Part shown: positions 7,471-51,946 of the stretch, piece after piece
How positions within the stretch are numbered: the first letter of the stretch is position 1
Layout: each line of letters opens with the position of its first letter
Origin: Candidatus Vogelbacteria bacterium
GTDB taxonomy: Bacteria; Patescibacteriota; Minisyncoccia; Phycocordibacterales; JACOZG01
Reading direction: 5' to 3'
Assembly (NCBI GenBank): GCA_043807405.1
Contig: JAZDGA010000001.1
Span: 25,130-89,129, forward strand
DNA length: 64,000 nt
The notes under the pieces: generated by a model
Databases searched by the model: none
Seen by the model: the letters and a program-made list of their open reading frames with translations, nothing else
Told to the model about the DNA's origin: nothing
Made by a program: the position numbers and the translations under genes

Positions 7471-8142
7471 TCACATGGGTTCTTCAACCACCTTTCCATC
7501 CTCGCCCACCACCGGTTCTTTCCCGCGCTTCTCCACTTCGATCGCCGAGAGATCCACCGGCGCTTCTTCTTCAACTTCCTCTTTCGCCACCGAGATCCCG
7601 GCGACCACTTCATCTGGTTTGTGAGTCGTCGTCACGCCCGCCGGTAAAACTAAATCTTTAACTAAAATCTGACTCTCGAGCGTCGCCAGTGGAGTGACAT
7701 CCACCGTAATCCCGCGCGGTAAATCTTTTGGCAAAGCTTCGATTTCCAATTCATGAAGCACCTTGAGTAATATTCCGCCGAGTTCCTTCACCGCCGGCGC
7801 GAGACCGGTATACTCGATTGGAATTTTAATTTTAAGCATCACATCCTGCTCAATCACATAAAGATCAGCGTGAACTAGTTCACTATTAACCGGATGATAA
7901 GCCACTTCGTGAATCAAAACGCTTTTCTTCCCCGCAGGAGTAGTGAGTGTAATAATTGACGATTCGCCGGCTAATTTGAGTACTTTTTTGAAATCCGCGA
8001 GCGAGACAAAAAGCGAAGTCGGCTTGTCTTTATGACCATAGACCACGACAGGTAAACGCCCGGCACGGCGCTCTTTTTTCAACTCCTTGCCAAAAATTGT
8101 CCGTTCTTTCGCTTCAAGCGTAAACATCCCTCTATTATGCAC
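7471..8142 (-). CDS. rplY: 50S ribosomal protein L25/Ctc
   Basis: FTLEAKERTIFGKELKKERRAGRLPVVVYG and PIEYTG motifs. The track start at 8142 is GTG; the ATG at 8125-8127 (MFTLEA) is the more likely start. Confidence 0.85.
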   Translation of the reverse strand: MHNRGMFTLEAKERTIFGKELKKERRAGRLPVVVYGHKDKPTSLFVSLADFKKVLKLAGESSIITLTTPAGKKSVLIHEVAYHPVNSELVHADLYVIEQDVMLKIKIPIEYTGLAPAVKELGGILLKVLHELEIEALPKDLPRGITVDVTPLATLESQILVKDLVLPAGVTTTHKPDEVVAGISVAKEEVEEEAPVDLSAIEVEKRGKEPVVGEDGKVVEEPM

Positions 8143-8162
8143 AGATTTAAAAAAAAGAAAAG
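8122..8162 (-). repeat. copy 1 of a 41-nt direct repeat: native rplY -10 region, SD and start codon
   Basis: aaacatccctctattatgcacagatttaaaaaaaagaaaag matches 8682-8722 at 39/41 positions. Confidence 0.85.
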
Positions 8163-8195
8163 GCGCACGATTAAACAGGGTTCAATGAAAGATAA

Positions 8196-8420
8196 TTACG
8201 CTGTTTGTCTTTGCCTTGCCAATAATTTTTGCGATTTTTGAAAAAATGAACTGGCTTCAAGAATCTCGACAAGAACAGGAATATGGTTCTTCGAGTAATG
8301 CACAACAAAATTCCCAGCCTCTTCAGCATAGTCAATCGGCTGAGACGATACTTCCCAACTCATCACATCAGCTTCCGACTCATAAGAAACCTTCAAATTT
8401 TTGGGCATTTTATTATTCAT
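8196..8420 (-). CDS. DUF2283-family protein (putative antitoxin partner of DUF4258)
   Basis: LKVSYESEADVMSWEVS...VVHYSKNHIPVLVEILEAS resembles the DUF2283 pattern. It overlaps the upstream DUF4258 gene by 4 nt. Confidence 0.7.
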   Translation of the reverse strand: MNNKMPKNLKVSYESEADVMSWEVSSQPIDYAEEAGNFVVHYSKNHIPVLVEILEASSFFQKSQKLLARQRQTA

Positions 8421-8671
8421 AATTTTTCGTATTGGCTACGACGACCCGGATAAAATGTTATGATGACCTGATCATCATCTTCTTCTCGATATACTACCCT
8501 CAATACATGTCGCTCGTCAATTTGTCTTTGAGCAATTAGGAGGGGCAATCGGCTATCATCAACTAGTTCCGGATCATCTACTATTGATATAACTAAGTCC
8601 CTAGTAACTCTAAAACCGTGCCTGGCCAAAACCATAAATTTTCGTTCGGCATGTTTAGTGAATCTGGTCAT
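8417..8671 (-). CDS. DUF4258-family protein (putative toxin)
   Basis: MTRFTKHAERKFMVLARHGF...VVYREEDDDQVIITFYP. Start trimmed to the ATG at 8669-8671; the longer track ORF runs into the duplicated rplY promoter. Confidence 0.7.
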   Translation of the reverse strand: MTRFTKHAERKFMVLARHGFRVTRDLVISIVDDPELVDDSRLPLLIAQRQIDERHVLRVVYREEDDDQVIITFYPGRRSQYEKL

Positions 8672-8681
8672 GACACTACAC

Positions 8682-8722
8682 AAACATCCCTCTATTATGC
8701 ACAGTTTTGAAAAAAAGAAAAG
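8682..8722 (-). repeat. copy 2 of the 41-nt rplY 5'-end repeat, now placed as promoter/leader of the DUF4258-DUF2283 cassette
   Basis: aaacatccctctattatgcacagttttgaaaaaaagaaaag. The relic ATG TTT GTG TAG reading frame stops after 3 codons. Confidence 0.85.
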
Positions 8723-8772
8723 CCCCTTGAAGTGATCGCGGGGCTTCATAGATCGAGAACTTGTGTTAGGTC

Positions 8773-9054
8773 TCAACTTTTTTCGCAATAACACAAACCA
8801 CTTTCATCGGGGATACACACATGCTTGTGTCCCGATTTTCTCCCCGGCAAATCTGAAGCCAAAATATCCTCCGAGCCAACAGTTATTGGTTCCGGGCAAC
8901 CGTTGAAGAAATGGCGTCTGATTTCAGCTCCAGTCACTGGCCCAGTGACGCCAGCATGATTGAACAGAGCGGTATCTCCCTTCGGGCAATCACACGGAAG
9001 ATCATTGTTTCCAGTCTCGATTATTCCAGTATCACTACATTTTTCACAGGTCAT
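8773..9054 (-). CDS. small Cys-rich protein (93 aa), hypothetical
   Basis: Strong AAGGAGG upstream of the ATG at 9054. CxxC...CDC and CxxxxxxxCxC clusters suggest metal binding. Confidence 0.55.
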   Translation of the reverse strand: MTCEKCSDTGIIETGNNDLPCDCPKGDTALFNHAGVTGPVTGAEIRRHFFNGCPEPITVGSEDILASDLPGRKSGHKHVCIPDESGLCYCEKS

Positions 9055-9100
9055 AAAGACCTCCTTTCTTATTTCAAACTATCATGCACAAATAAATTAA

Positions 9101-10075
9101 TCAAACTGTTGTACTAAATTCGGTGGGGTTTTTCCCTGCCAATCCGGCGAGAATGTTTTCGGCGACGAGCAGAGACATTGCTTGACGAGTTTCTTCCGTC
9201 GCCGAAGCTGTGTGCGGAGTCAAAATAACATTCGGCAAATCGGCGAGACCGGGCGCGAGTTGGGGTTCATGTTCAAACACATCCAGACCAGCGCCACGAA
9301 GCGCGCCAGTTCGCAACGCTTCAACTAAAGCCGTCTCATCCACCACCGGCCCGCGCGCGGTATTGATGAGAATCGCCGTCGGCTTCATTAACTTTAATCG
9401 CTCGGCGTTAATCAAATTCCGCGTCGAATCAAGCAATGGCACATGGACTGAAACAAAATCGGCTTGGTTCAAAACATCATCCACCTTGGCACAGTAAGTT
9501 GCACCATATTCTTTTTCAAACGACTCATTGCGGGTCACATCATAATAAATAATTTTCATCTCGAAACCGCGCGCACCGAAGTGCGCCATCCGCGCGCCGA
9601 TTCGTCCCAAGCCAACAATCCCTAAAGTTTTATCAACCAAATTCACCCCGAGGAAAAGCAACGGCGCCCAACCTTGGTATTCACCCGCGCGCACATAGTG
9701 ATCCGCTTCCGCTAACCGCTTGGCGACTGCGATCATCAAAGCGAAGGCGTGTTCGGCGACCGCGTCCGTGAGCACGCCGGGCGTATTGGTAATCATTATC
9801 CCCCGTTGTTTCGCTGTCGCCAAATCAATATTATCGGTTCCCACCGCGTAATTGGCAAAAATTTTCGTCTGCGGGGTAGCGGCAAAAACTTCATCATCAA
9901 TTTTATCCGTCAACAAACACAGCACAGCGTCATAGGGCGTCGCGCGAAGCGCAGTGATTAATTCTTCTTTCGTCAGCACGCCGTCCTTCTCACTCACGAC
10001 CACCTCATGCCCATTTTCTTTTAACAAATTCAGCCCGGCATCAGGAATCTTCCTGGTTACAAAAATTTTCGCCAT
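9101..10075 (-). CDS. D-isomer-specific 2-hydroxyacid dehydrogenase (glyoxylate/hydroxypyruvate reductase or D-glycerate dehydrogenase type)
   Basis: NAD-binding GIVGLGRIGARMA, plus HVPLLDSTRNLIN, ARGPVVDETAL and GAGLDVFEHEP. Confidence 0.85.
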   Translation of the reverse strand: MAKIFVTRKIPDAGLNLLKENGHEVVVSEKDGVLTKEELITALRATPYDAVLCLLTDKIDDEVFAATPQTKIFANYAVGTDNIDLATAKQRGIMITNTPGVLTDAVAEHAFALMIAVAKRLAEADHYVRAGEYQGWAPLLFLGVNLVDKTLGIVGLGRIGARMAHFGARGFEMKIIYYDVTRNESFEKEYGATYCAKVDDVLNQADFVSVHVPLLDSTRNLINAERLKLMKPTAILINTARGPVVDETALVEALRTGALRGAGLDVFEHEPQLAPGLADLPNVILTPHTASATEETRQAMSLLVAENILAGLAGKNPTEFSTTV

Positions 10076-10081
10076 AAAATT

Positions 10082-14014: not shown

Positions 14015-14155
14015 TTAATTCCCTATAATTATTATTGCCCGTATTGTTTTAGGAATACGAATCAAGGATTTCATTTTATTAATTATTTTTTTCACTCATG
14101 TTCGCTTTTTATTTTACCACACAATCCTCTAAAACAAACTTATCCACACCCATAG

Positions 14156-14181
14156 CAAGTAGATGCGATAGCAGTTACTTG
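14156..14181 (+). promoter_or_regulatory. 26-nt motif with CAAGTA/TACTTG arms, 15 nt upstream of the PaaX-like gene; candidate operator
   Basis: caagtagatgcgatagcagttacttg matches 42117-42142 at 24/26 positions. Confidence 0.4.
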
Positions 14182-14195
14182 CTACTATTTCCCAA

Positions 14196-14762
14196 ATGAA
14201 GAAGCGACAAAAGCGAATTTATAGTCCGACTAAACAAAAAATTCTCCTGCTCTTAGCTACTGGTCTAGTTTTGGGTTTACGCAAATCCACCATCGGTCAG
14301 CAAGTAAAAATTATTCAACGGGCCACCAAAGAATGGGCTGGAATTAATCGACGGTATCTTTATCAGTGCCTACGCGAATTCCATCATAATCACCTCGTTG
14401 AGTATAAAGAAGATGACGATGGTAATATTAAAATTATTTTAAGCGAGCAAGGAAAAGAACGCGTCCTGCGATTCAAAATTGATCAACTCACTTTACCAAA
14501 ACTAACACACTGGGACAATCAATGGCGAATAGTTTTATATGATATTCCCGAGAAAAAGAAACCAGCGAGAGAAGCTCTGCGAGAAAAACTTAAAGAGCTT
14601 GATTTTTATGAGTGGCAAAAATCAGTTTTTATTTATCCATTTCCTTGTCGAGATGAGATTGATTTTTTGATTGAATTTTTCGAGATCAGATCTTATGTCA
14701 GGTATGCGGAATTAAGCCAACCAACTAATGAAGCAGAACTTAAACTTCATTTCGAACTCTAA
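14196..14762 (+). CDS. PaaX-like transcriptional regulator (wHTH plus Cas2-like C-terminal domain)
   Basis: The C-terminal WRIVLYDIPEKKKPAREALREKLKELDFYEWQKSVFIYP pattern resembles PaaX-family proteins. This is pattern recognition only. Confidence 0.55.
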   Translation: MKKRQKRIYSPTKQKILLLLATGLVLGLRKSTIGQQVKIIQRATKEWAGINRRYLYQCLREFHHNHLVEYKEDDDGNIKIILSEQGKERVLRFKIDQLTLPKLTHWDNQWRIVLYDIPEKKKPAREALREKLKELDFYEWQKSVFIYPFPCRDEIDFLIEFFEIRSYVRYAELSQPTNEAELKLHFEL

Positions 14763-14862
14763 TTTCCAACCTTAGTCTCTGATGCCAAAAATCATTAAGC
14801 CAAATTCTGGCGATAGCAGGGATTCGGTATATAACCTCATTTTGCGCGGGGTTTAACATAAC

Positions 14863-15171
14863 TTAATGTATAAAGAAAATAGAAAACCCGCGTATTAAAT
14901 AAATTATAAATATTAAATGAACTATAGCTAAGATCGTGGCTAAAAGTATTTTTGTTGATTTCGCGCGCCTCAAAATTGAGACAAAACCGTAGACAGCAAT
15001 AAAAATTGAAAAGAAAAACCAAATAAGCATTGACGGGATAAAAATCCATGGAAACGCAATGTAACCACCGGGTGATGTACAAAGGAAAAAAATAAAAACA
15101 AATATTGGGATACAAATTAAGTAGATCGGGGATAAAATTTTTAACCACCGGTAGGATTTATTCATGTTCAT
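14863..15171 (-). CDS. hypothetical multi-pass membrane protein (~102 aa)
   Basis: Chosen over the overlapping 14837-15148 frame because of coherent TM helices and an ATG 7 nt after the upstream stop. The region is AT-rich. Confidence 0.45.
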   Translation of the reverse strand: MNMNKSYRWLKILSPIYLICIPIFVFIFFLCTSPGGYIAFPWIFIPSMLIWFFFSIFIAVYGFVSILRRAKSTKILLATILAIVHLIFIIYLIRGFSIFFIH

Positions 15172-15178
15172 TTTTGGT

Positions 15179-16225
15179 TTATTGTTTCCTATTAACATAC
15201 ATCATATCTGCCTTAAAATTGCCTTTTCCGTCTGTGAAAATCTGTTCAAAGTATAACCTGCTTCCGTCATTTGGAATGCTTGGTTCTCCAACTCCAAGTT
15301 TGCTTGATACGACTAATTCCGGTTCTCCAAATTTATTATTGCCTAATCTTTTTGACTTGTAGATACCCATTGGCATTCCTGTGGGTTGCCTGTTTGAAAC
15401 AAAATACAAATAATTTTCATAAACAAACGTCTGCATGTCATCCCCTTCGCTGTTTATTGGTTCAGGCAACAATTCGGGAGACTGCCATTTCCCATTCACT
15501 TTTTCAGACCTAAAAATATTATGGCCCTTAAATTTTGCGGGCCTTTTGCTCCAGAAAAACATCTCATTCTCTTCTTGGTTTACAAATGGGTCGTCATCCC
15601 AAAAAGTAGAACTAACCTCATCAATCTTTATGGCTGACCCCCATTGACCGTTTTTCTTTTCAGAATAGGCAATCACTTTTTCACTACATTGATCATCAAA
15701 AGAGGCTATAAAATAAGCTTTATGATCATTTACTAAAGTTATACTTTGAACTGGACAATTTAGAGTTAACGGATGTGGCTGTGGCGCGCTCCACCCATTT
15801 GCAGTCTTTTCTACATAAAAAAGATCATATCTTGGAGAATCACCACAGTTCATAGATCCTGTTGGACCTAAGAGACATGTTTTTTTGTTATCTATTGACG
15901 GACCAATCTTTACTAATTTACCATCGCCAAATTGAATCCTAAAAGCGTCAACGTTGATATATCCAAAATAAAAAGTATTTCCATCAGGAGAAATGTAATC
16001 TCCTTCTTGCCACCCGTCTGTGTTAAACGGCATAAGTTGCGGTTCACCCCATTCAGGAGATACTCTGGCTACATCATCTGCTCTGATGGTCTCCCAATTA
16101 ATTCTAACTTCCGGTAAAGATATCGTATCAATTATGGTCGGTTGGCGAAAGGCTAAAACCAAAAAAATAACAACAACCAGAATGACTATCCCCCACAAAA
16201 AATATTTTCGTCTGATTTCACTCAT
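15179..16225 (-). CDS. membrane-anchored protein with TolB-like PD40/WD40 beta-propeller repeats
   Basis: Recurrent ISPDGNTFYF, EMFFWS, YLYFVSNR and DGSRLYFE repeats with an N-terminal TM helix. Start set at MSEIRRK (16223-16225). AT-rich compared with its neighbours. Confidence 0.6.
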   Translation of the reverse strand: MSEIRRKYFLWGIVILVVVIFLVLAFRQPTIIDTISLPEVRINWETIRADDVARVSPEWGEPQLMPFNTDGWQEGDYISPDGNTFYFGYINVDAFRIQFGDGKLVKIGPSIDNKKTCLLGPTGSMNCGDSPRYDLFYVEKTANGWSAPQPHPLTLNCPVQSITLVNDHKAYFIASFDDQCSEKVIAYSEKKNGQWGSAIKIDEVSSTFWDDDPFVNQEENEMFFWSKRPAKFKGHNIFRSEKVNGKWQSPELLPEPINSEGDDMQTFVYENYLYFVSNRQPTGMPMGIYKSKRLGNNKFGEPELVVSSKLGVGEPSIPNDGSRLYFEQIFTDGKGNFKADMMYVNRKQ

Positions 16226-17084
16226 GTTCGCTGTGGATGCGACCCCAGAGGGTGCGGAGTTCTTTAATTGCCATGTCGCCTTCTTGCTTGGTCGGTGGTT
16301 TACCATGCCATTCGTAGCGGTGTTCGAACATCCCGACGCCTTTGCCCGGAATGGTGTGAGCGATAATCACGGTCGGTTTGCCGAAGACGGCCTTGGCGCG
16401 ACCGACAGCGTCGTTGATCTCTTCGAAATTGTGCCCGTCAATCTCAATCACCTGCCAGTTGAAAGCCCGCCACTTATCGGCCAGTGGCTCAAGCGGCATA
16501 ATGTCTTCAGTGAAGCCATCGATCTGGATGTTGTTGCGGTCAACGATGGCGATCAGATTACGAAGACCTTCCCGACCAGCGAGCATAATCGCTTCCCATG
16601 AATTACCAGAATCAAGCTCGCCATCGGACATCAGACAATAAATAAATTTTGTGGAAGCCTCGCCGTGTTCCATCTTCTCGGCGAGGGCCATCCCCACGGC
16701 TTGCGATAAACCCTCGCCGAGCGGGCCGGAACTGGTCTCGAGCATCGGCAACCAATCGCGATGGGGATGACCTTGCAAACGCGAACCGAATTTGCGCAAG
16801 GTTTTTAATTCCTCAACTGGGAAATAACCAGCGTGGGCCATCGTGGCATAGAGCACCGGGCAGATGTGTCCATTAGAGAGCACTAGTCGATCACGATCCA
16901 GCCACCTCGGATCGCGCGGGTCGTGTTTGAGAAGATGGAAGTAGAGCGCGGTGAAGATATCGGCCATCCCCATCGGTCCGGCGGTATGACCAGAGCCGGC
17001 AATAACCAACATCTCGATAATTGATTGACGAATGTCGTTTGCCTTCTTTTCTAAAAATTTAATTTTGTCGTCGTGTAAGTGCAT
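16218..17084 (-). CDS. transketolase, N-terminal (TPP-binding) subunit
   Basis: GSGHTAGPMGMADI, LSNGH and GPLGEGLSQAVGMA motifs. Confidence 0.9.
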   Translation of the reverse strand: MHLHDDKIKFLEKKANDIRQSIIEMLVIAGSGHTAGPMGMADIFTALYFHLLKHDPRDPRWLDRDRLVLSNGHICPVLYATMAHAGYFPVEELKTLRKFGSRLQGHPHRDWLPMLETSSGPLGEGLSQAVGMALAEKMEHGEASTKFIYCLMSDGELDSGNSWEAIMLAGREGLRNLIAIVDRNNIQIDGFTEDIMPLEPLADKWRAFNWQVIEIDGHNFEEINDAVGRAKAVFGKPTVIIAHTIPGKGVGMFEHRYEWHGKPPTKQEGDMAIKELRTLWGRIHSEHE

Positions 17085-17773: not shown

Positions 17774-18241
17774 TTAAAATTCCGGATTAGACTTTAATTT
17801 GTAATCGAGTTTAGTGATTCGTCGAATATGCCGATCGGCGCCAGAAAACGGCGTCTCCAGCCAAAGTTTGATAATTTCCTTAGCGCGGTCAAGCTCAACC
17901 AACCGAGCACCGAGAGACAAAATATTGGAATTATTGTGTTCGCGCGACAATTTAATCACCTCACTCGGACCGCCATAAAAAACCGCCGCTCGAACATGTT
18001 TGAACCGATTGGCGCACATCGCTTCACCCTGACCCGAACCGCCAAAAATAATTCCGCGATGATTCTCCGGATCAGACGCCACCATCTTGGCCACAATATC
18101 AATAAAATCTGGATAATCATCCGCCGGCTCGAGCTTGAACGCGCCTTCATCATTTGTCTCATACCCCAAAGAATGCAAATAAACCTTAATCTTCTCCTTC
18201 ATTTCAAACCCCGCATGATCAGATCCGAGAAAGATTTTCAT
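17774..18241 (-). CDS. rpiB: ribose-5-phosphate isomerase B
   Basis: MKIFLGSDHAGFEMK and GGSGQGEAMCANR motifs. Confidence 0.9.
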   Translation of the reverse strand: MKIFLGSDHAGFEMKEKIKVYLHSLGYETNDEGAFKLEPADDYPDFIDIVAKMVASDPENHRGIIFGGSGQGEAMCANRFKHVRAAVFYGGPSEVIKLSREHNNSNILSLGARLVELDRAKEIIKLWLETPFSGADRHIRRITKLDYKLKSNPEF

Positions 18242-18456
18242 TATATAAAATCCTGTTTTGATAATCCGGCAGACTTGATAATTGACAACAGGGTACCTTT
18301 TGGTAAATCGCCAGAATGAAACGGCAGGGTTACTCTTTTTTGATTATCTTTATTATACAAAATATAGTGGCTTCCTGTTGTGTGATCCACTTCAAAACTA
18401 TGACTTTCGAGAATTGCCAACACTTTCTTGAAGGTAATACCGGGTAATTTAGGCAT
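18241..18456 (-). CDS. hicA: HicA-family mRNA interferase toxin
   Basis: A 71-aa YcfA/HicA pattern (KKVLAILESHSFEVDHTTGSHYIL...LPFHSGDLPKGTLLSIIKSAG). Its stop overlaps the rpiB ATG by 1 nt. Confidence 0.85.
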   Translation of the reverse strand: MPKLPGITFKKVLAILESHSFEVDHTTGSHYILYNKDNQKRVTLPFHSGDLPKGTLLSIIKSAGLSKQDFI

Positions 18457-18703
18457 GGCGAACTTTTACATTCGCGGGGAAAGAGATTAAACTCACAAAA
18501 TTTTCTTGGTCCGAAGGCACTGGTTCTTCATGTTTTCTCATTGATTCTACGTAACCGTGAATAGCGTCTACTGCCATCTCTCTAGCTTCGCTAAGGTCTT
18601 TCCCATAACTTATACACCCTGGTAAAGAAGGAACGATGGTAGTAAAACCACCTTCCGGCTCGGCTCTAAAAATAACATTATATTGAAGTATTTTATCTTG
18701 CAT
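18449..18703 (-). CDS. hicB: HicB-family antitoxin
   Basis: YNVIFRAEPEGGFTTIVPSLPGCISYGKDLSEAREMAVDAI (UPF0150/HicB fold). Start trimmed to MQDK (18701-18703). Overlaps hicA by 8 nt. Confidence 0.8.
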   Translation of the reverse strand: MQDKILQYNVIFRAEPEGGFTTIVPSLPGCISYGKDLSEAREMAVDAIHGYVESMRKHEEPVPSDQENFVSLISFPANVKVRHA

Positions 18704-18758: not shown

Positions 18759-18792
18759 ACCCCGCATGATCCGCGCCGAGGAAAATTTACAT
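18759..18792 (-). pseudogene. relic duplicate of the rpiB 5' end (ATG TAA ATT TTC CTC GGC GCG GAT CAT GCG GGG)
   Basis: Matches the real rpiB start region (18208-18241) at 28/34 positions. It would encode M*IFLGADHAG versus MKIFLGSDHAG. Confidence 0.7.
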
Positions 18793-18855
18793 TTATTAAA
18801 ATTCAAATTGCTCCAATCTTAATCATGTGCTGGACCAAGGTGTAAGTGTGCCCTA

Positions 18856-20568: not shown

Positions 20569-20786
20569 TCCCTTCAAACACAACGACTTCGGGTAGATCG
20601 TATCTACTCAGATCTCCTTTTATTATGCATTTTTCCAACAAAAGAAAACGCACAGAAACGAACTACACCTTGAAAAAGACCAACAACCACACTAAGGGGG
20701 ACAACCACTCGTTTCCCTCATCTTTTTATCTCCCTATAATGATGAGAAAAAACCCGTGTTTCCGTTCCGCGACTAAACCGAACTCC

Positions 20787-22553: not shown

Positions 22554-22838
22554 TCACAAATTGTCTTTAGGCCAAGACGGGCAATACTTTTGGTAAAATT
22601 TGAGACCTTCGACACTTACATGAATCCAGAAAAGTTCTTGGCACTTTGGACATTGAAACACAATGGCCCCAGCCCCAGCATAATAACTACCCCTTTTAAC
22701 GACCTCATGATTAAAACCAACAACATGCGGAGCGATCACACGAGTTAGTTTGTTACCAATCTCCCAACCATATTCACACTCCCATTCCATAGCATGATAA
22801 AGACCGTTTAAGACCGTAATGCCCCACGAATGTGTCAT
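22554..22838 (-). CDS. hypothetical protein (94 aa) with a CPKC...C motif
   Basis: ORF track entry, preceded by promoter-like repeat copy 1 and GAGGTG. Confidence 0.5.
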   Translation of the reverse strand: MTHSWGITVLNGLYHAMEWECEYGWEIGNKLTRVIAPHVVGFNHEVVKRGSYYAGAGAIVFQCPKCQELFWIHVSVEGLKFYQKYCPSWPKDNL

Positions 22839-22843: not shown

Positions 22844-22890
22844 ACCTCGATTCTACCCGCTAGGTTAGCATATCTAGGTTTAGATGTCAA
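22844..22890 (-). repeat. copy 1 of a ~47-nt promoter/5'-UTR direct repeat
   Basis: The minus strand reads TTGACAtctaaacctagatatgcTAACCTagcgggtagaatcgaggt. Its partner lies at 24514-24562. Confidence 0.75.
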
Positions 22891-22921: not shown

Positions 22922-24351
22922 GTAAGTTATCCACAAAAAGACCATACAAAATATGGGGTTTTTGCTAAAATAGAGGTCTAAATGCTAGGTCAATTAAGTC
23001 GAGAAATCAGACTCCAAATCAGTGTCACCAGGCTGAAGAAGGGCACGCAGAAACTGCGAGAGAAAGTGGTCGAACTCCTCCATTCAAACAAAGAAAAGGA
23101 TCGGCGGATCGCTGACTTGGAAGCTAAACTGATCGACAAAGAGTCTCAACGAAAAGAATTGCTCTCCTACCTCTACAAACCGGGCAAGAAAACTGGGGAA
23201 GCCAAACCGCGAGGCAAGCAACCGGGCGCGCCGGCTTACCATCGGCCAATTCCGCCGCCATCAGCCGTGACCCAAGAACACAGTTATGTCTTGAAAATTT
23301 GCCCCATCTGTGAAAAAGAAGTCGGGGGCGTAGTTGATACCGTGGTCAAGTACACCGAAGACATCGCCCTGAAGCCACGACCAATCGTCACCAAACATAC
23401 GATTACCCGTCACTGGTGCGCGCGCTGCGAGACTTATGTCAAATCAAAAAACATTCCACCGATCACTCGGATTGGTATCAAGACCATGGGTTATGTTCTC
23501 TACGCTCGATACCGTCTCCGTTTGCCGTTGGGCAAGATCAAAGAGAGTCTGCTGGACCTCTATGACTTCAAACTCTCGGAAGGTGAAATCGTGGCGACCT
23601 TGAAGGACGCCGAGACCCTTTTCGGCAAAGATTATGAAGCGATTATCGCACTCATCCAAGCCGCCACCACTGTCTACGCCGATGAAACTGGTTGGCGAAT
23701 GGATGGAAACAACTGGTGGCTGTGGGTGTTCGTCACCACGACCGGCACCCAATATTTGATTGAAGACAGTCGAGGCAAGGGCGGGCCTGAACGAGCGTTG
23801 GGAAACAAAGCTGATCGCGTGATCATTTCCGACGGCTATGCCGCTTACCAAAATCTAGCGGGCGACAAACAACAATGCTGGGTGCATCTATTGCGAGTAG
23901 CCAAACTTCAGTCGCTCTCGTTGTATCAGGATTTGGTTGTTCTCTACAAGAAACTGTTACTCGAATTAGAGAAACCACTCGGGCAACGAGACAAAGAAAA
24001 GTTAAAAAAAGAATTGGCTGATTTGATTGTTAAATCATACTTGGAACCGACGGTGGGAAAAGTCCGGGAGAGAATGAAGCGTCACCAAGCGGTACTTTTT
24101 ACCTGTCTTGATTATGAAAGTGTTCGGCCCGAGAACAATACCGCCGAACGAGCGATCCGACCACAAGTCGTGATGCGTAAAATCTTCGGCGGATCGCGAT
24201 CGTTGGCGGGGGCTCAAGCTCATCAAGTCAACTCGTCAGTGTTGGAAACGATGCGTCAACGGAACCCCGAAGCTAATTTCTTCGATGTCATTTTACCCTT
24301 GCTGGAGAAACGTCGCTCGGAGGTGTGAGCTGATACTTTTTTGTGATCCAC
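22922..24351 (+). mobile_element. IS66-family insertion sequence, single-ORF type; ends approximate
   Basis: Imperfect terminal inverted repeats GTAAGTTATCCACAAAAAG (22922-22940) and CTTTTTTGTGATCCAC (24336-24351) flank an IS66-type transposase. No clear target duplication could be identified. Confidence 0.7.
22982..24328 (+). CDS. IS66-family DDE transposase
   Basis: N-terminal coiled coil, zinc-finger CPICEKEV...CARCETYV, YADETGWRMDGNNWWLWVF, SDGYAAYQNL, QQCWVHLLR and NNTAERAIRPQVVMRKIFGGSRS. Confidence 0.9.
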   Translation: MLGQLSREIRLQISVTRLKKGTQKLREKVVELLHSNKEKDRRIADLEAKLIDKESQRKELLSYLYKPGKKTGEAKPRGKQPGAPAYHRPIPPPSAVTQEHSYVLKICPICEKEVGGVVDTVVKYTEDIALKPRPIVTKHTITRHWCARCETYVKSKNIPPITRIGIKTMGYVLYARYRLRLPLGKIKESLLDLYDFKLSEGEIVATLKDAETLFGKDYEAIIALIQAATTVYADETGWRMDGNNWWLWVFVTTTGTQYLIEDSRGKGGPERALGNKADRVIISDGYAAYQNLAGDKQQCWVHLLRVAKLQSLSLYQDLVVLYKKLLLELEKPLGQRDKEKLKKELADLIVKSYLEPTVGKVRERMKRHQAVLFTCLDYESVRPENNTAERAIRPQVVMRKIFGGSRSLAGAQAHQVNSSVLETMRQRNPEANFFDVILPLLEKRRSEV

Positions 24352-24513: not shown

Positions 24514-24562
24514 ACCTCACGATTCTGCCCACTAGGTTAGCATATCTAGGTTTAGAAGTCAA
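24514..24562 (-). repeat. copy 2 of the ~47-nt promoter/5'-UTR direct repeat
   Basis: The minus strand reads TTGACTtctaaacctagatatgcTAACCTagtgggcagaatcgtgaggt. Confidence 0.75.
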
Positions 24563-41738: not shown

Positions 41739-41765
41739 TGGTTTATTATATCATAAATTGTTAAC

Positions 41766-41845
41766 CCCGCCCTAACCCTCCCCGAAGGAGAGGGCGATTT
41801 GATTCCCCCCTTCCCCTTCGGGGAAGGGGTTTGGGGATGAGGTGA
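41766..41845. repeat. ORF-less (MITE-like) pair of type A GC-rich hairpins, the same repeats that bound the DUF559 cassette in leuS
   Basis: aaccctccccgaaggagagggc (hairpin at 41776-41794), a 9-nt spacer, then CCCCTTCCCC-ttc-GGGGAAGGGG (41807-41829) followed by gtttggggatgagg. Confidence 0.7.
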
Positions 41846-41850
41846 AAGTT

Positions 41851-47000: not shown

Positions 47001-47268
47001 CGTAATTCTCGGTCGGCAAACCGAACGCGTCCCAACCCATCGGATAAAGCACCTCATAACCTTCCGCTCGCCGTTTCCGCGCCACCGCGTCCATCGCCGT
47101 ATAACCCCGGACATGCCCGACATGCACACCTTCGCCCGACGGATACGGAAATTCAACGAGAGCGTAATATTTTTTCTTCCGACTTCTTTCATTCATCCGA
47201 TGAAATTTCTTGGCTTCCCACACCTTCTGCCACTTCGCTTCAATCGCCTTAGGATTATATTTTCTCAT
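44053..47268 (-). CDS. leuS: leucyl-tRNA synthetase carrying two in-frame domain insertions (DUF559 endonuclease-like and Nudix)
   Basis: HIGH (HVGHVRGY), NWIGRSEGAEIEF, editing motifs TTRPET and GTGAIMGVPAHDERD, LRDWVFSRQRYWGEPIP and KMSKS. At 1071 aa it is larger than the ~800-880 aa I recall for bacterial LeuRS. Confidence 0.9.
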   Translation of the reverse strand: MRKYNPKAIEAKWQKVWEAKKFHRMNERSRKKKYYALVEFPYPSGEGVHVGHVRGYTAMDAVARKRRAEGYEVLYPMGWDAFGLPTENYAIKTGLPPQLITKRNATRYRKQLQSLGFSFDWSREINTTDPNYYQWTQWMFLQFFKKGLAYKAKVPINWCPSCKIGLANEEVNDGKCERCGTAVEMRDKEQWMLAITKYADRLDRELDLVNYPESVKSQQRNWIGRSEGAEIEFKIFNPSPSPLPEGEGEFGYQTTDPQTWQALQEKAKEMRQNSTKAEDLLWQLLRRDATNYHFRRQHIIGKFIVDFVCLEKKLVVEVDGDVHDCQKESDQERSSFLEQKGFKIIRFKNEKVIENGMLVVAEINETLKALSFGEGLGGVDSIKVFTTRPETIFGATFIARHGAADHFTGEYAINPVSQEKIPIWEAEYVMGDVGTGAIMGVPAHDERDLAFAQKHNLAIRNVVIPRLIDTRNPHVPGKKIVFRNAIIAVVRNPKTGKFLCLKWKKQPWTTFVMGGVEEGEDPVLAAIREIKEETGYQKVKLVKILGEAQSEFFAAHKDVNRIAHTYSILFDLEDDKKEEISEEEKNIHEMVWLPLAELTSEKMTHSEMPLILDGMKIDRQIYTGIGVLTNSDQFDGKNSEEVRDEIIKLVDGEKQTIYKLRDWVFSRQRYWGEPIPLVFCQKCQEWVPVPEKDLPVKLPVVKKYQPTDNGESPLALVEKWVKVKCPKCSGTARRETDVMPNWAGSSWYYVAYCVSENLNSQLSISKQFSSSKIQKKLNRWLPVDWYNGGTEHTTLHLLYSRFWHKVLNDLKLVPGQEPYQKRTSHGFILAHDGEKMSKSRGNVVNPDDIVRRFGADTLRVYEMFMGPFDQAIAWNEDGLVGSRRFLERVWKIVQSARLAVGQVKLKTKNKIQEENLQSLINQTIKKVSDDIEVMKFNTAISSLMILLNSLEKESTISVATIKIFLKLLSPFAPHITDELWQNLGEKKSIHLAPWPRELKVQSASRRIKVKIVVQINGKTRDVFEAENGLGEKELTQLAISRPKVKMWLKDKPVRKTIFIPNRLINFVIDNN
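45394..45873 (-). other. Nudix hydrolase domain inserted in the CP1 editing domain of LeuRS (aa ~466-625)
   Basis: Perfect Nudix box GGVEEGEDPVLAAIREIKEETGY (aa 514-536, nt 45661-45729), between IRNVVIP and VLTNSDQFDG. Confidence 0.8.
46135..46560 (-). mobile_element. DUF559 (Vsr-like endonuclease) cassette with hairpin terminal inverted repeats, inserted in frame in leuS (aa ~237-378)
   Basis: LLWQLLRRDATNYHFRRQHIIGKFIVDFVCLEKKLVVEVDGDVH...GFKIIRFKNEKV. Bounded by inverted GC-rich repeats at 46134-46164 and 46524-46558. Confidence 0.75.
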
Positions 47269-47471: not shown

Positions 47472-48029
47472 ATGGACCTTGTCAAAATGAACAAAGACAG
47501 CACCCTGCCCAATGCCTTACGCCGCGCGTGGATGGACCACACTGGCGACGATCCTCTCCGTTCAAGCCAAATTTCGAGAAGGCTTCTTTGGCTCTTTCTT
47601 GGATCCTTGGTAATGCTTGCAGTGGCATTCTTTTGGTTTGTGTTTGTGCCAACATCATTTCCAAATTCAAGCAACAGTGATTATGGTTATTTAGCAATTC
47701 TGGGAGTGATTGGGGTGATAGTATCTATCGCTCTTGACACAAGAAATGACAAGAATGTCATGAAATTCGCCAGGGCAGTTGCGAGTTTATGCCAGGATAC
47801 CCCCTACGAATACGAAATCAGCGCGCTAGTTCAGTTAAGTTTCTTTGGTGACCTGCGTCCAATCGCCGACCAGAAACTACGCGCCCTCGCCCAAAGGATT
47901 AAAGACCTGCAAGCGCAAGCTCAAGAAACCGAGGCCAATAAAATCCGCCTTGAGGAATTCAAGCCACTTCACCAAAGTTTCTACCAGCTCGGCCTAGCTG
48001 ATGAGACCTGGGATTCTTATTTCCGCTAG
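47472..48029 (+). CDS. hypothetical membrane protein (185 aa)
   Basis: AAGGAG lies 8 nt upstream of the ATG. Two TM helices are followed by a helical C-terminal domain. Confidence 0.55.
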   Translation: MDLVKMNKDSTLPNALRRAWMDHTGDDPLRSSQISRRLLWLFLGSLVMLAVAFFWFVFVPTSFPNSSNSDYGYLAILGVIGVIVSIALDTRNDKNVMKFARAVASLCQDTPYEYEISALVQLSFFGDLRPIADQKLRALAQRIKDLQAQAQETEANKIRLEEFKPLHQSFYQLGLADETWDSYFR

Positions 48030-48053: not shown

Positions 48054-48089
48054 GACCTGCGATCGCCTCACGGCTTCGCAGGTCTTTTT
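48054..48089 (+). terminator. rho-independent terminator
   Basis: GACCTGCGA-N13-TCGCAGGTC followed by TTTTTAT. Confidence 0.65.
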
Positions 48090-48108
48090 ATATCTTGAAC
48101 TCAATCAC
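48088..48108 (-). repeat. relic duplicate of the last 6 codons plus stop of ychF
   Basis: The minus strand reads GTG ATT GAG TTC AAG ATA TAA (VIEFKI*). The live ychF end is GTT ATC GAG TTT AAG ATA TAA, and all 3 differences are synonymous. Confidence 0.7.
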
Positions 48109-48154
48109 CCGCCTTCGTCCGCCTCTGGCGGACTACGGACGGGCAGGCATCCCC
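48109..48154. repeat. 46-nt GC-rich palindromic element lodged between the two ychF 3'-end copies
   Basis: ccgccttcgtccgcctctggcggactacggacgggcaggcatcccc, with core hairpin TCCGCC-tctg-GGCGGA. A related CCCGCCtctgGCGGG sits at ~39494-39508. Confidence 0.6.
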
Positions 48155-49141
48155 TTATATCTTAAACTCGATAACGTCACCGTCGCAAACCACATAATCC
48201 CGACCTTCGATCCGGAGCAATCCCCGCTCGCGGGCGCTCGCGTATGAACCAACGTCGAGAAGCGTTTGCCAATTGATGACTTCCGCCTTAATGAAGCGTT
48301 CGCGGAAGTCGCCGTGAATCGCCGCGCCGGCTTCGGGTGCCGTCGCTCCCCGCTTCACCGTCCACGCCCGTGTCTCATCCTCGCCGGTGGTGAAAAAAGT
48401 CATCAACCCGAGCAATTTGTAACTCGCCGTAATTAAATCATCTAACCCCGTGCCAAACACCGGATCAATTTCAACGATTTCATTTACTTCGCCCCCCAAT
48501 TTATTTTTAAAATCCGTAACTATATTCTCGGTCGCCGCCGAGATATTGAGCACATAGAGCATCGGTTTGGCGGTCAACAAATGCAAATCTTTCGGCGCTT
48601 CACTCCCCGCCCGCTTCCCCTCTTTTAACTTGGTTTCAATTTCTGCCAATAATTTCTCTTCGGCCACCGCCTCTTTTTTCCCCTGCTTCACTTCTCGCCC
48701 GAGCGACACGCGCCGTTTCGTCACGGTCTCGAGATCCGCCAAACATAATTCTAAATTTATTGTCTCAATATCCGAAAGCGGATCAATTTTATTCGCCACA
48801 TGAACAATGTCCTTATCTGTGAAAACTCGGACCACATGCGCGATCGCGTCAACTTCTCGAATGTGAGATAAAAATTGGTTTCCTAACCCCTCACCTTTCG
48901 AAGCACCGGCGATTAAGCCGGCGATATCCACGAACTCTACCGCCGCCGGCACCGTCTTGATCGATTTCGAAAAAGCCGTGAGCTTGTCCAGACGCGGATC
49001 CGGTACCGCCACCACTCCGACTGACGGATCAATTGTGCAGAACGGATAATTCTCCGCCGGCACGCCCTTCTTCGTCAGCGCATTAAACAGCGTTGACTTC
49101 CCCACATTTGGTAATCCGACGATGCCGATGCTTAAACTCAT
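48155..49141 (-). CDS. ychF: ribosome-binding ATPase YchF
   Basis: GIVGLPNVGKSTLFNALT P-loop, DIAGLIAGASKGEGLGN and a TGS-like C-terminus. Start set at the ATG at 49139-49141 (MSLSIG). Confidence 0.85.
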   Translation of the reverse strand: MSLSIGIVGLPNVGKSTLFNALTKKGVPAENYPFCTIDPSVGVVAVPDPRLDKLTAFSKSIKTVPAAVEFVDIAGLIAGASKGEGLGNQFLSHIREVDAIAHVVRVFTDKDIVHVANKIDPLSDIETINLELCLADLETVTKRRVSLGREVKQGKKEAVAEEKLLAEIETKLKEGKRAGSEAPKDLHLLTAKPMLYVLNISAATENIVTDFKNKLGGEVNEIVEIDPVFGTGLDDLITASYKLLGLMTFFTTGEDETRAWTVKRGATAPEAGAAIHGDFRERFIKAEVINWQTLLDVGSYASARERGLLRIEGRDYVVCDGDVIEFKI

Positions 49142-49421: not shown

Positions 49422-49433
49422 AGCCATTATCAG

Positions 49434-49452: not shown

Positions 49453-49456
49453 CACG

Positions 49457-49494
49457 CGCCACAACCCTCGGGTTTGGCGCCTTTTTATTTTTTA
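49457..49494 (+). terminator. rho-independent terminator between convergent genes
   Basis: GCGCCACAACCC-tc-GGGTTTGGCGC followed by CTTTTTATTTTTT. Confidence 0.65.
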
Positions 49495-49722
49495 CAAAAG
49501 CAACCCCTGCAATTCCGTCGCGTGAGCTTGCATTATTTCCATCGCGGCGGTTTGTTTATCCATTCCCCCTTTTACTTTCGCTTCAATTTCGACAGCAATT
49601 TGTTTGAACAGTTCGGGATTCTTTTTCATCGCGCTAAGCACCATTTCAATCTGCGCCTCGGGCACGCCCTGCGACTTGAGCATCTTCTTGAGCAAGAAAT
49701 CTTGAAACATCGTAGTTTCCAC
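49492..49722 (-). CDS. hypothetical helical protein (76 aa)
   Basis: ORF track entry. No family recognised. Confidence 0.4.
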   Translation of the reverse strand: METTMFQDFLLKKMLKSQGVPEAQIEMVLSAMKKNPELFKQIAVEIEAKVKGGMDKQTAAMEIMQAHATELQGLLL

Positions 49723-49753
49723 GATACCAAATCTGTGCTAATTTAACAACACT

Positions 49754-49827
49754 GGGCCTATAGTATAGCGGTAGAACGGTTCCATGGCATGGAACAGGTC
49801 CGGGTTCGACTCCCGGTAGGTCCACCA
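49754..49827 (+). tRNA. tRNA-Ala (anticodon GGC) with genomically encoded CCA
   Basis: GGGCCTA TA GTAT AGCGGTA GAAC G GTTCC ATGGCAT GGAAC AGGT CCGGG TTCGACT CCCGG TAGGTCC A CCA. The G3:U70 identity pair is present. Confidence 0.85.
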
Positions 49828-49984
49828 CTTCGCCCCGCCAATATGGCGGGGCTTCGCGGTGCGAGCACTTAATAGCTTCAGCGACGAGGTGCGAGCATTC
49901 ATCTTCACCGCGAAGGAAGTGGTGTGACCCCGCAGAGTCCCGCGTAACGCAGTGAAGCGGGACAAAGTGGGGTATAATTATTAA

Positions 49985-50224
49985 ATGTATTATGTTTACA
50001 TTTTAAAAAGTCTTAAAGATAATAGTTACTACACTGGCGTTACAATCAATCTTGAAAAAAGATTAACCGAACACAACTCTGGTTATTCAGCCTATTCTTC
50101 ATCAAAAATACCTTTCGAAATAGTTTGGCATTGCACTTTCCTAGACAGGAGTAAGGCCTACAATTTTGAAAAATATTTAAAATCCAGTTCCGGATTCGCT
50201 TTCCGAAATAAACATCTTATTTAA
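49985..50224 (+). CDS. small GIY-YIG nuclease-family protein (79 aa)
   Basis: MYYVYILKS...YYTGVT...LEKRLTEHNSG, the GIY-YIG/UPF0213-type pattern. Confidence 0.8.
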   Translation: MYYVYILKSLKDNSYYTGVTINLEKRLTEHNSGYSAYSSSKIPFEIVWHCTFLDRSKAYNFEKYLKSSSGFAFRNKHLI

Positions 50225-50316
50225 GAAACGCGGGTAATTCTCTCCACAACATGCTAAAGTAGGGGTCGGTTATTGTTCTTCACAATGGTCTTTTTAATAG
50301 GAAAGTGGGGCGCGGG

Positions 50317-50961
50317 ATGAGCATGATTGTAATGGGGCAGACCATATCTAGATTCCAAAAACAAATCAACAGATTGGAACGACTCGGGATTCCTAGATTG
50401 TTTGGAATCGAGAACGACAATTGGAAATCATGGTTAGCCAAATTTGGAGTGACTGAATCAAGCCTAACCGGCAAGAAATCTTTTATCGGCTTGCCGGTAG
50501 GATTAATTCCAGTCGCTGATCGGTGGATTTTTTGGCAGGGACTTTGCCCTAATCTGGAATTAAATAGCGAGATGATCGAAACAGCGACTAAGCGTCTACA
50601 CCGAGGTAATCTGCCAACTGAAGCTTATGTCGTCAGAGAAGTGTCATTCGACATCTGGAGCGAGACCGCCATGAAAGCTGTCAAAGATTGGCCCCGTCTG
50701 CAAGTAGAATTGTCCGACGCCAAACGCGTTGGTTTGACTAGTGAAGAATTGGCCACTTCTCTGGCTTACGATCCGAATCATCATGATACGATGCTTGCCT
50801 TGGGTTCAGTAGAAGATGACGTGGTTCCTTGCCTCGAGCCCGTCACTAGCCATTGGAAATTGTCGCTCTATCGTTTCAGAGATTTCATCGACGAAAAGGG
50901 CCAATGGGTGTCACCCTTCGGTGGCGCGGGTCGTGTCGTCGCGCCAACCGCGAAACAGTAA
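50317..50961 (+). CDS. hypothetical protein (~214 aa)
   Basis: ORF track entry (the track start at 50305 is GTG; the first ATG is at 50317). A strong terminator follows. Confidence 0.5.
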   Translation: MSMIVMGQTISRFQKQINRLERLGIPRLFGIENDNWKSWLAKFGVTESSLTGKKSFIGLPVGLIPVADRWIFWQGLCPNLELNSEMIETATKRLHRGNLPTEAYVVREVSFDIWSETAMKAVKDWPRLQVELSDAKRVGLTSEELATSLAYDPNHHDTMLALGSVEDDVVPCLEPVTSHWKLSLYRFRDFIDEKGQWVSPFGGAGRVVAPTAKQ

Positions 50962-50967
50962 GTATCA

Positions 50968-51004
50968 GACCTCGCTCCGCCAACCGGCGGACGAGGTCTT
51001 TTTT
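50968..51004 (+). terminator. rho-independent terminator
   Basis: GACCTCGcTCCGCC-aacc-GGCGGACGAGGTC followed by TTTTTT. Confidence 0.7.
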
Positions 51005-51022
51005 ATGTTATGATAAATTCTT

Positions 51023-51613
51023 ATGTTTGATTTGGTCTCATTAGTTGAAGGCGCCGGTTATTTGGGTCTCTTCGCTATCATCTTCGCCGAGTCGGGTATT
51101 TTGCTCGGCTTCTTCTTGCCCGGCGATAGTCTCCTCTTCACCGCTGGCTTTCTCGCTTCACAAGGTTATCTCGCCATCGTCCCACTAATTATTCTCCTCT
51201 TCATTGCGGCGGTCTTGGGTGATGCCGTCGGTTACACTTTTGGGAAAAAGATCGGACCGAAAATATTTTCCCGACCAAAATCATTTTGGTTTAATCCCGC
51301 GCATATCGAAAGAACTAAAACTTTCTTCGAGCGCTACGGCGCGAAAACTATTTTGCTCTCCCGCTTCCTGCCCGCCGTGCGTACCGTCGCGCCGATTATG
51401 GCGGGCATCGGCGGGATGCGCTACCGCGTCTTCGCGATCTACAACGGCATCGGCGCTTTGGCTTGGGCTTGTGGTCTTACTTTACTCGGTTATTTTTTTG
51501 GTCGGACAATTCCGAACGCGGACAAATATCTTGTCCCGATCGTTCTCGCCATTATTATTCTCTCCATCCTCCCCACCATCTGGCAAATTATTAAAGAAAA
51601 GCGTAAAGTGTAG
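51023..51613 (+). CDS. DedA-family (VTT domain) membrane protein
   Basis: GLFAIIFAESGILLGFFLPGDSLLF and SRFLPAVRTVAPIMAG motifs. Confidence 0.8.
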   Translation: MFDLVSLVEGAGYLGLFAIIFAESGILLGFFLPGDSLLFTAGFLASQGYLAIVPLIILLFIAAVLGDAVGYTFGKKIGPKIFSRPKSFWFNPAHIERTKTFFERYGAKTILLSRFLPAVRTVAPIMAGIGGMRYRVFAIYNGIGALAWACGLTLLGYFFGRTIPNADKYLVPIVLAIIILSILPTIWQIIKEKRKV

Positions 51614-51622
51614 GGTGGATTA

Positions 51623-51946
51623 GGGCGGTTAGCCCCTCACTCAGAAATTCCTTGGACGATCGATATGTATTACGTTTATTTACTAAAGAGCCGTAAAAAT
51701 GGTAATCTTTATATCGGGTACTCCAGCGATCTTAAGCGCCGTTTAAGTGAACACAACAACGGGCAGAATCGGTCAACTAAACCGTACGCTCCGTATTCAC
51801 TAGTTTATTACGAAGCATATCGATCGTCCGCTGATGCTAAAGAGCGCGAGTCCCAGTTGAAACGTTTTTCTCAAGCATATACTCAGTTAAAACGCCGAGT
51901 TGATAATAGCATCAGCGAGGAATTTCCTGAGTGAGGGGCGGTTAGC
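51623..51946 (+). mobile_element. GIY-YIG nuclease cassette with ~20-nt terminal inverted repeats, flanked by an 11-nt direct repeat of the tRNA 5' end
   Basis: Direct repeat GGGCGGTTAGC at 51623-51633 and 51936-51946. Inverted repeats cccctcactcagaaattcc (51633-51651) and ggaatttcctgagtgagggg (51919-51938). Confidence 0.65.
51665..51934 (+). CDS. small GIY-YIG nuclease-family protein (89 aa)
   Basis: MYYVYLLKS...LYIGYSSDLKRRLSEHNNG. The last 5 codons (EEFPE*) are encoded by the right inverted repeat. Confidence 0.8.
   Translation: MYYVYLLKSRKNGNLYIGYSSDLKRRLSEHNNGQNRSTKPYAPYSLVYYEAYRSSADAKERESQLKRFSQAYTQLKRRVDNSISEEFPE

Follow-up and report, generated by a model that had tools for sequence, protein, structure and literature searches.

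Relics of housekeeping gene ends beside accessory DNA in a Candidatus Vogelbacteria genome: possible scars of recombination between diverged alleles

Bacteria of the Candidate Phyla Radiation (CPR, Patescibacteria) possess tiny and tightly packed genomes, and the ways in which they gain genes are poorly understood. Here we report on gene-end relics, short second copies of the start or end of a housekeeping gene that lie on the far side of inserted DNA from the intact gene, in a 64,000-nucleotide (nt) stretch of a Candidatus Vogelbacteria genome (GenBank assembly GCA_043807405.1, contig JAZDGA010000001.1, positions 25,130 to 89,129 of the forward strand); the whole stretch is called the window below, and positions refer to it unless a related locus is named. 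For the protein-gene cases, which comprise those at rplY, rpiB, tktN and ychF together with some 15 others from related genomes, we consider the chances even that they arose as recombination scars, through exchange between cassette-bearing and cassette-free versions of the same neighbourhood. The evidence comes from the architecture of the individual loci, from a survey of related loci and from the pattern of differences between relics and working genes.

The host belongs to the Paceibacterota (Parcubacteria, CPR) and is an ultra-small groundwater bacterium; its nearest public relatives are metagenome-assembled genomes of the same group. The nearest relatives in all collections, including the locus that we label L001, are ~85% identical in DNA, and an exact-protein look-up of rpiB for sister strains returned no record; the empty sites described below are therefore those of diverged relatives. 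Between 6 and 22 kb the window carries a conserved housekeeping block with the order gatB-gap-rpiB-rpe-tktN-tktC-(pfkB)-fba-[2-hydroxyacid dehydrogenase]-rplY, as judged by Pfam and synteny, in which every gene but pfkB is encoded on the minus strand. For the survey, 160 related loci around tktC and tktN were fetched and three duplicates dropped; the remaining 157 non-redundant loci contain 310 junctions of core genes at which 150 nt or more of additional DNA is present.

Upstream of rplY a 41-nt segment occurs twice, once at the intact gene and once beyond a two-gene insert that encodes a DUF4258-like toxin and a DUF2283-like partner (Table 1). The segment consists of a T-run, a conserved TGTGCATAAT...AGAGGG element and ATGTTT, and the two copies are identical at 39/41 positions; the second reads into a stop codon (ATGTTTGTGTAG) and now sits ahead of the toxin gene. 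Conservation of the element upstream of rplY in L001, L002, L004 and L176 argues for a promoter role; a consensus promoter scan did not flag it. Pfam support for the gene pair is weak (DUF2283, E=2e-4; DUF4258, E=0.01), and homologues of the toxin carry the DUF4258 name in their source records. The rplY site of L001 is devoid of the toxin pair and represents the empty site, with a single copy of the element (9199-9239 of that locus) to which both window copies are 95% identical. The upstream contexts of the two copies differ: the working copy alone matches L001 for another 15 nt upstream, to position 8177, and ahead of the second stands the hairpin that belongs to the 93-aa gene upstream. In L176-L186 the closest DUF4258 homologues likewise lie upstream of rplY as part of this toxin pair, which there shows no duplication and is coupled to the preceding gene. 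Two side observations concern the same elements. At 20610-20650, in the interval from gatB to gap, there is a weak third match to the rplY element (63%), similarly arranged as TGCATAAT...AGGAG, which may represent a common type of upstream signal. In L176 (2985-3290), and also in L184, L185 and L178, a ~300-nt G+C-rich and apparently non-coding spacer separates the DUF2283 gene from rplY; Rfam gave no match to the spacer of L176.

The repeat at rpiB covers the first 34 nt of the gene and 10 nt upstream, and its two copies, 80% identical over 44 nt, enclose hicB and hicA, the hicA stop codon overlapping the rpiB ATG. An extra T follows the ATG of the relic; minus that T, it reads MKIFLGADHAG compared with MKIFLGSDHAG in the working gene. 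The relic agrees with the rpiB start of L005 at 31/35 positions. In L005, L014 and L015 the gap gene abuts rpiB directly, denoting the empty site. The closest HicA homologues reside at the same gap-rpiB junction, where hicBA is found in the window, L009, L170, L171, L166 and L172-L175; the hicA/rpiB junction itself is common to the window and L009. L170 and L171 display the order gap, relic rpiB 5' end, hicB, hicA, rpiB, with relics longer than that of the window (51 nt in L170, 47/51 identical).

The first-pass annotation of the window had listed gene-end repeats at rplY, rpiB, ychF and a tRNA-Val gene and, as a looser fifth case, a promoter/5'-UTR repeat, which surrounds an IS66-family transposase gene; each is present where it was described. 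A sixth, absent from that list, lies between the transketolase genes tktN and tktC, 2.1 kb from the working end of tktN. This relic comprises a tktN 3' end, its stop codon and the start of tktC, the ATG of which has become ATA. It matches the tktN/tktC junction of the distant L128 over 42 nt at 93%, with a core of 26/26, as opposed to only 23/30 against the window's own tktN end. In the empty state the two genes overlap (L015, L020, L027) or at least abut (L025). Since the relic is also found in L005 (67 nt, 89.6%) and L002, the event must be old, and like the hicBA relic of the window, L170 and L171 it is an inherited structure, not a recent insertion here. Within the insert, the open reading frame (ORF) with PD40 repeats is in frame with an ATG that overlaps the tktN stop codon, which is the position of the tktC start in insert-free genomes; this ORF probably starts at the old tktC ATG.

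At ychF, the last six codons and stop (48155-48175) are repeated with 18/21 identities, all three differences being synonymous third-position changes, such that both copies translate as VIEFKI followed by a stop. The relic runs straight into a terminator that is common with the convergent 185-aa gene. The 3'-end duplicate is real as first described; inserted DNA had been described as lying between the copies, but the accessory gene (47472..48029) is outside them, beyond the relic, and only 46 nt separate the two. This spacer is too small for a mobile element. In L162-L165, representing the empty site, ychF is directly followed by leuS. A tandem duplication was considered and rejected: by eye, the 46-nt stretches that follow the relic and the working copy bear no relation to each other. 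Comparison of relatives, as the first-pass annotation had envisaged, thereby identifies empty sites at rplY, rpiB, tkt and ychF.

How readily could such repeats arise by chance? The best local direct repeat in 20 block shuffles of the window scored 17, compared with 36 for the rplY pair, 35.5 for the IS66 pair and ~21.5 for the rpiB pair, the last calculated separately with the same scoring. Taken as bare strings, the repeats at ychF and at the tRNA do not exceed chance; they are convincing through their register (in ychF the same stop codon and six residues) and their position, and we estimate the probability of the ychF repeat, given its fixed place, at about 1e-5. In the related loci each flanking gene terminus was aligned to the gap between the genes, with reverse complements and shuffles as controls. 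Alignments scoring at least 60 numbered ten on the direct strand, one on the reverse complement and none after shuffling; five direct-strand alignments scored at least 80, against none in either control. Restricted to coding termini and a score of at least 40, the test returned 14/610 for adjacent gaps versus 1/1484 for non-adjacent gaps of the same loci (Fisher p = 3e-7). The proposal that the signature recurs beyond the window, next to accessory DNA and above chance, is therefore borne out.

The relics in the survey derive from the 3' end of gap in five genomes, from the starts of fba, rpiB, rpe, tktN and tktC and from the ends of rpe, tktN and fba. They range from 20 to 123 nt, and every one of them contains the gene terminus and is located on the far side of the inserted DNA. 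The inserts between the copies encode toxin-antitoxin pairs (HicAB, DUF4258/DUF2283, Gp49(HigB)+HTH, PemK, NTase+HepT), small membrane proteins and a DUF5674 protein. Pfam searches of the annotated relic-bearing inserts (0.05-2 kb) revealed no integrase or other recombinase, the exceptions in terms of mobility genes being the IS66 locus and the Y1 (IS200-like) transposase ORFs of L119, identified by Pfam, and L154, where a similar ORF was recognised by eye only. GIY-YIG and DUF559 proteins had been put forward as a common driver; neither is present in the protein-gene relic inserts. No identical core common to both junctions was found across events, and repeat lengths and identical blocks vary from case to case.

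The differences between relics and working copies are informative about their origin. Across 20 relic/working pairs, mismatches at codon positions 1, 2 and 3 number 25, 14 and 74, respectively; position 3 accounts for 65% of them versus 43% in simulated in-place duplications, in which the relic drifts freely and the working copy accepts synonymous changes only (p = 1.4e-6). Furthermore, the rpe relic of L044 and the gap relic of L109 are closer to other lineages than to their own gene. This third-position excess and the relics that match other lineages indicate that the two copies have had separate coding histories, in support of the earlier suggestion, to which the match of the tkt relic to L128 adds weight, that the extra copy stems from a related allele. 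Some pairs are nearly identical (rplY as above; L003, 84/85; L004, 67/71; L142, 35/36; L118, 29/30; L119, 22/22), several of them at 95-100%; others are 73-89% identical with a third-position bias. Comparing both termini with relatives offers little discrimination as to which copy is native, the relatives being just 68-80% identical. The neighbourhood as a whole points to a mosaic that may have been recombining. Identity to the window is inconsistent in rank between genes (rpiB, 61% in L002 and 75% in L005; rpe, 70% in L002 and 47% in L005), L081 is 91% identical in tktN and 64% in gap, and sliding identity to L001 drops from ~92% to ~78% in the 3' third of gap, in a profile that is noisy at ~85% overall.

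We propose that one end of each insertion would be set by a normal homologous crossover, placed either within the conserved gene or past it, a geometry that we infer from the present arrangements. The other end would be an illegitimate join located by a few codons inside that gene's counterpart in the other version, i.e. the event would be one of homology-facilitated illegitimate recombination (HFIR) or displacement. The outcome would be an intact gene beside the cassette, and on the far side a stranded short piece of the other allele's start or end. With neither the essential gene nor its signals disrupted, such a product would be tolerated even where genes are tightly packed, and toxin-antitoxin cassettes may afterwards resist loss. 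DNA uptake is the presumed route of entry, and the identity of the resident copy is likewise presumptive. Patescibacteria are reported to have retained recombination and DNA-uptake genes and to be naturally competent (PMC12455944). The allelic nature of the copies, the differing contexts of the rplY copies, the sites with a cassette and no duplication (L176-L186), the presence of one cassette at one junction in divergent lineages (hicBA at gap-rpiB), the 46-nt ychF spacer, the seemingly mosaic neighbourhood and the lack of a recombinase in the annotated inserts together favour an origin as recombination scars.

Several points weigh against this origin. Experimentally, homologous recombination outstrips HFIR in frequency by orders of magnitude (PMC5361080). 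At tkt it is the relic that appears to be foreign and the working end native, the opposite of what the simplest model predicts. The near-identical pairs of rplY, L003, L004 and L118 fit a duplication during insertion equally well, and the allelic differences elsewhere could be a later product of ordinary allele replacement in the working gene. Finally, no donor/recipient pair of >95% identity was found among the relatives compared, and the drop in the 3' third of gap is the only hint of a recombination breakpoint.

The main rival is insertion in place, whereby a cassette enters at a break with staggered or resected ends, the target is copied over 20-120 nt to either side, and the copies later diverge or the working gene undergoes allele replacement; to our minds this is a somewhat unlikely origin. 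It would readily produce the near-identical pairs of rplY, L003, L142, L118 and L119, and the higBA cassette of L001, which lies between 20-nt repeats of the tktN end that are 19/20 identical; both rplY copies align to one copy in L001, and this class of insertion is documented, chiefly in naturally competent species (PMC2853133). The third-position excess, however, is above what such duplication predicts, and some relic alleles are closer to other lineages than to their own gene. Moreover, only the working rplY copy has an upstream context like that of L001, and the toxin pair occupies the same position without any duplication in L176-L186.

Alternatively, a cassette joined to a fragment of its target gene, for instance as an excised circle, might integrate by a single RecA-mediated crossover of the Campbell type and thereby regenerate the repeat. 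The same cassettes are paired with the same junctions in divergent lineages (hicBA, DUF4258/DUF2283); in L166 hicBA is followed by an rpiB fragment of just 12 codons and then by an unrelated DKNYY gene, and in L003 a higBA unit is preceded by an 85-nt relic of the tktC start, with a tktN-end relic retained as well. Yet homology that is short (20-90 nt) and often 73-90% identical makes a poor RecA substrate, no circular or free form was seen, and descent with flanking homologous exchange explains the common positions equally well; we therefore deem this account decidedly unlikely. The broader notion that the toxin-antitoxin cassettes are recombinase-free mobile units, which carry a conserved-gene fragment as an address tag and are inserted by host recombination after DNA uptake, strikes us as unlikely. 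If true, a cassette would home to one junction across divergent lineages and regenerate the gene-end duplicate each time.

It is very improbable that the structures are decayed integrative elements, i.e. that a tyrosine or serine recombinase inserted them at gene ends with a replacement end in the attachment site, and that the recombinase and most of the element were subsequently lost. The layout of intact gene, insert and displaced end conforms to this, as do a 31-nt identical block followed by divergence in L041 and the split of an old tRNA-Val gene in its anticodon stem (see below). Nonetheless, the annotated inserts are free of integrases, the relic lengths and identical blocks vary with no common core, and the events hit a wide range of genes, at the 5' end in some and the 3' end in others; with no integrase or recombinase in them, the analogy to islands that integrate into tRNA genes, which had been drawn at the outset, does not hold. 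Chance similarity or mis-assembly of strain variants is scarcely credible: the window and most surveyed loci do come from metagenome assemblies and the ychF and tRNA repeats are short, but the shuffle and non-adjacent-gap controls speak against it, and the same relics recur in independent assemblies of different samples (hicBA in the window, L170 and L171; tkt in the window, L002 and L005).

Recombination scars, our preferred explanation for the protein-gene relics, do not extend to all the repeats listed at first, and the idea of a single mechanism for the five loci has to be given up. The GIY-YIG/tRNA and IS66 loci probably arose by other, element-encoded routes. The GIY-YIG unit is probably transposon-like, with inverted repeats at its ends (51632-51660, 51911-51939) and an 11-nt direct repeat, GGGCGGTTAGC, at 51623-51633 and 51936-51946; terminal inverted repeats with a short direct repeat are found solely here, and not at the rplY, rpiB, tkt or ychF loci. 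The 11-nt repeat had been ascribed to a tRNA-Val 5' end; the repeat is real, and it belongs not to the intact tRNA-Val gene at 52028-52099 but to a second, fragmented tRNA-Val(CAC), the three pieces of which, once joined, are recognised as a perfect tRNA by ARAGORN. Three interruptions split this older gene: the GIY-YIG unit follows its nucleotide 11, a 39-nt hairpin (51957-51995) occupies the D-loop, and a 115-nt insert (52005-52119) sits in the anticodon stem. The 115-nt insert holds the intact tRNA-Val(CAC), which differs in sequence from the older one; the 3' halves of the two genes are paralogous. An Rfam search of the window found six tRNAs and nothing else, and the fragmented gene surfaced only through manual reconstruction. 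The D-loop hairpin, CCCGCCCGA...TCGGGCGGG, has a second copy at 56293-56330, just upstream of tRNA-Ala(CGC).

GIY-YIG genes also occur directly upstream of core-gene starts (rpiB, fba) in L001 (2234-2617), L002 (6134-6511) and L022 (7432-7683 and 12389-12637). Those of L001 and L002 are 88% identical in protein, and the 40-nt hairpin that precedes the rpiB ATG is the same in both, despite rpiB amino-acid identities to the window of 92% and 61%, respectively; judged from these sequences, this suggests that the GIY-YIG unit may spread site-specifically.

At the IS66 locus a direct repeat, 93% identical over 43 nt (22848-22890 versus 24520-24562) and ~47 nt long with a 2-nt indel, surrounds the transposase gene. 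There are no clear terminal inverted repeats at this locus, and the unit had no plasmid match.

Table 1. Features of the window at the loci discussed; ORF, open reading frame; RBS, ribosome-binding site.
Feature	Position	Strand	Basis
rplY (ribosomal protein L25/TL5), intact working gene	7471..8127	-	Pfam Ribosomal_L25p, TL5_C
rplY upstream element + ATGTTT, working copy, 41 nt	8122..8162	-	39/41 identical to 8682-8722
Two-gene insert: DUF4258-like toxin 8417..8671, DUF2283-like partner 8196..8420	8196..8671	-	weak Pfam
rplY upstream element + ATGTTT, second copy, then GTGTAG (stop)	8682..8722	-	39/41 identical to 8122-8162
tkt relic, different allele of tktN 3' end + stop + tktC start (ATG to ATA)	14078..14121	-	match to L128 junction
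2.1-kb insert between tktN and tktC	14122..16215		Pfam, frame checked
PaaX_M/Cas2-like ORF in tkt insert	14196..14762	+	Pfam
111-aa ORF in tkt insert	14863..15198	-	
PD40-repeat ORF in tkt insert	15179..16225	-	Pfam
Working tktN 3' end (…WGRIHSEHE, stop)	16216..16247	-	
rpiB, intact	17774..18241	-	Pfam LacAB_rpiB
rpiB repeat, working copy: first 34 nt + 10 nt upstream	18208..18251	-	80% identical to 18759-18802
hicB 18449..18703, hicA 18241..18456, toxin-antitoxin cassette	18241..18703	-	Pfam HicA_toxin 1.4e-16, HicB_lk_antitox 1.5e-9
Relic rpiB 5' end, +1 frameshift	18759..18802	-	80% identical to 18208-18251
IS66-locus repeat copy 1, upstream/RBS segment ahead of 94-aa gene 22554..22838	22844..22890	-	
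IS66-family transposase ORF between copies	22982..24328	+	Pfam DDE_Tnp_IS66 8.5e-35
IS66-locus repeat copy 2, adjoining GGCTTAC motif resembling IS66-type end (by eye)	24514..24562	-	
ychF 3' end relic (VIEFKI, stop)	48088..48108	-	18/21 identical to 48155-48175
G+C-rich hairpin-forming spacer, 46 nt, working ychF stop to relic	48109..48154		
ychF, intact	48155..49141	-	Pfam YchF-GTPase_C
GIY-YIG unit, ORF 51665..51934	51623..51946	+	Pfam GIY-YIG 6e-17
Fragmented older tRNA-Val(CAC), pieces 51936-51956, 51996-52004, 52120-52162	51936..52162	+	ARAGORN on joined pieces

Some further features of the window lie apart from the relics. The leucyl-tRNA synthetase (LeuRS) ORF (44053-47268, minus strand, 1071 aa) contains a 142-aa in-frame insertion at about aa 237-378 (46132-46564), which consists of a DUF559 (Vsr-like endonuclease) domain between two G+C-rich hairpin-forming repeats. 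These repeats recur 11 nt apart and without DUF559 at 41763-41847, and the LeuRS of L162 is free of the insertion, which looks like a mobile endonuclease unit translated within an essential enzyme. LeuRS also includes a NUDIX domain (aa 482-604), as L162 appears to do, judging by the continuous alignment. An 848-aa ORF (61401-63947, minus strand) has three internal direct repeats of 31-53 nt, 74-76% identical and ~1.0-1.5 kb apart, presumably duplicated domains. G+C-rich islands were considered as junction markers and dropped, being uninformative at an overall G+C content of 47%.

The relics record, in physical form, how accessory genes (addiction modules for the most part) have been wedged between essential genes without breakage, and they point to exchange between diverged strains with conserved genes as anchors and no dedicated recombinase. 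They retain a sample of the other allele and could consequently be employed as markers for dating or tracing exchange in uncultured lineages. In annotation, relics account for pseudo-starts and pseudo-ends of short length, for upstream elements that occur twice and for a tRNA gene in fragments.

Comparable structures are known from several systems. Insertion sequences such as IS1634 and IS1549 generate long target duplications of variable length, and the IS66 family normally makes 8-bp duplications; the 43-47-nt direct repeat around the transposase gene at our IS66 locus resembles the former. Integrative elements, as Williams is said to have set out in 2002 and as streptococcal integrative and conjugative elements reportedly illustrate, target tRNA genes or the ends of protein genes and restore them. 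They are similar to the loci described here in supplying a replacement gene end and keeping the displaced end at the far border, and differ in that our inserts are tiny, have many targets and possess neither an integrase nor a conserved core.

Insertion with long target duplication places small selfish gene units between direct repeats that measure 30-400 bp (Nobusato et al. 2000; Furuta et al. 2010, PMC2853133). The parallels are close: the empty-site genome has one copy to which each of the two repeats aligns, transposase and integrase genes are lacking from the insert, the repeats vary in length and some overlap gene 3' ends, and the known cases are mostly from naturally competent species. 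The 41-nt rplY repeat exceeds 30 bp, and those of ychF (21 nt) and of tktN in L001 (20 nt) fall below it. In contrast to the restriction-modification genes of the known cases, however, the cargo here consists of toxin-antitoxin pairs and other small genes, the repeats derive from either end of housekeeping genes and take in upstream signals, the host is a member of the CPR, and many pairs diverge like alleles instead of being near-identical. HFIR and the 'C-terminal displacement' arrays of Rhs, contact-dependent inhibition and type VI secretion loci (PMC5361080) offer the other parallel: a conserved gene serves as anchor for the incoming DNA, which supplies its own gene end, the old end is pushed outward as an orphan, and repeated events give rise to arrays. 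Here, by contrast, housekeeping genes rather than polymorphic toxins are involved, the relics span only 20-120 nt, and displacement affects 5' and 3' ends equally often. The gene-end relics look like the product of a recombination process already known from other bacteria and not of a new class of mobile element; they stand apart in their cargo, in the involvement of housekeeping genes at either end together with upstream signals, in the host lineage and in the clear allelic divergence.

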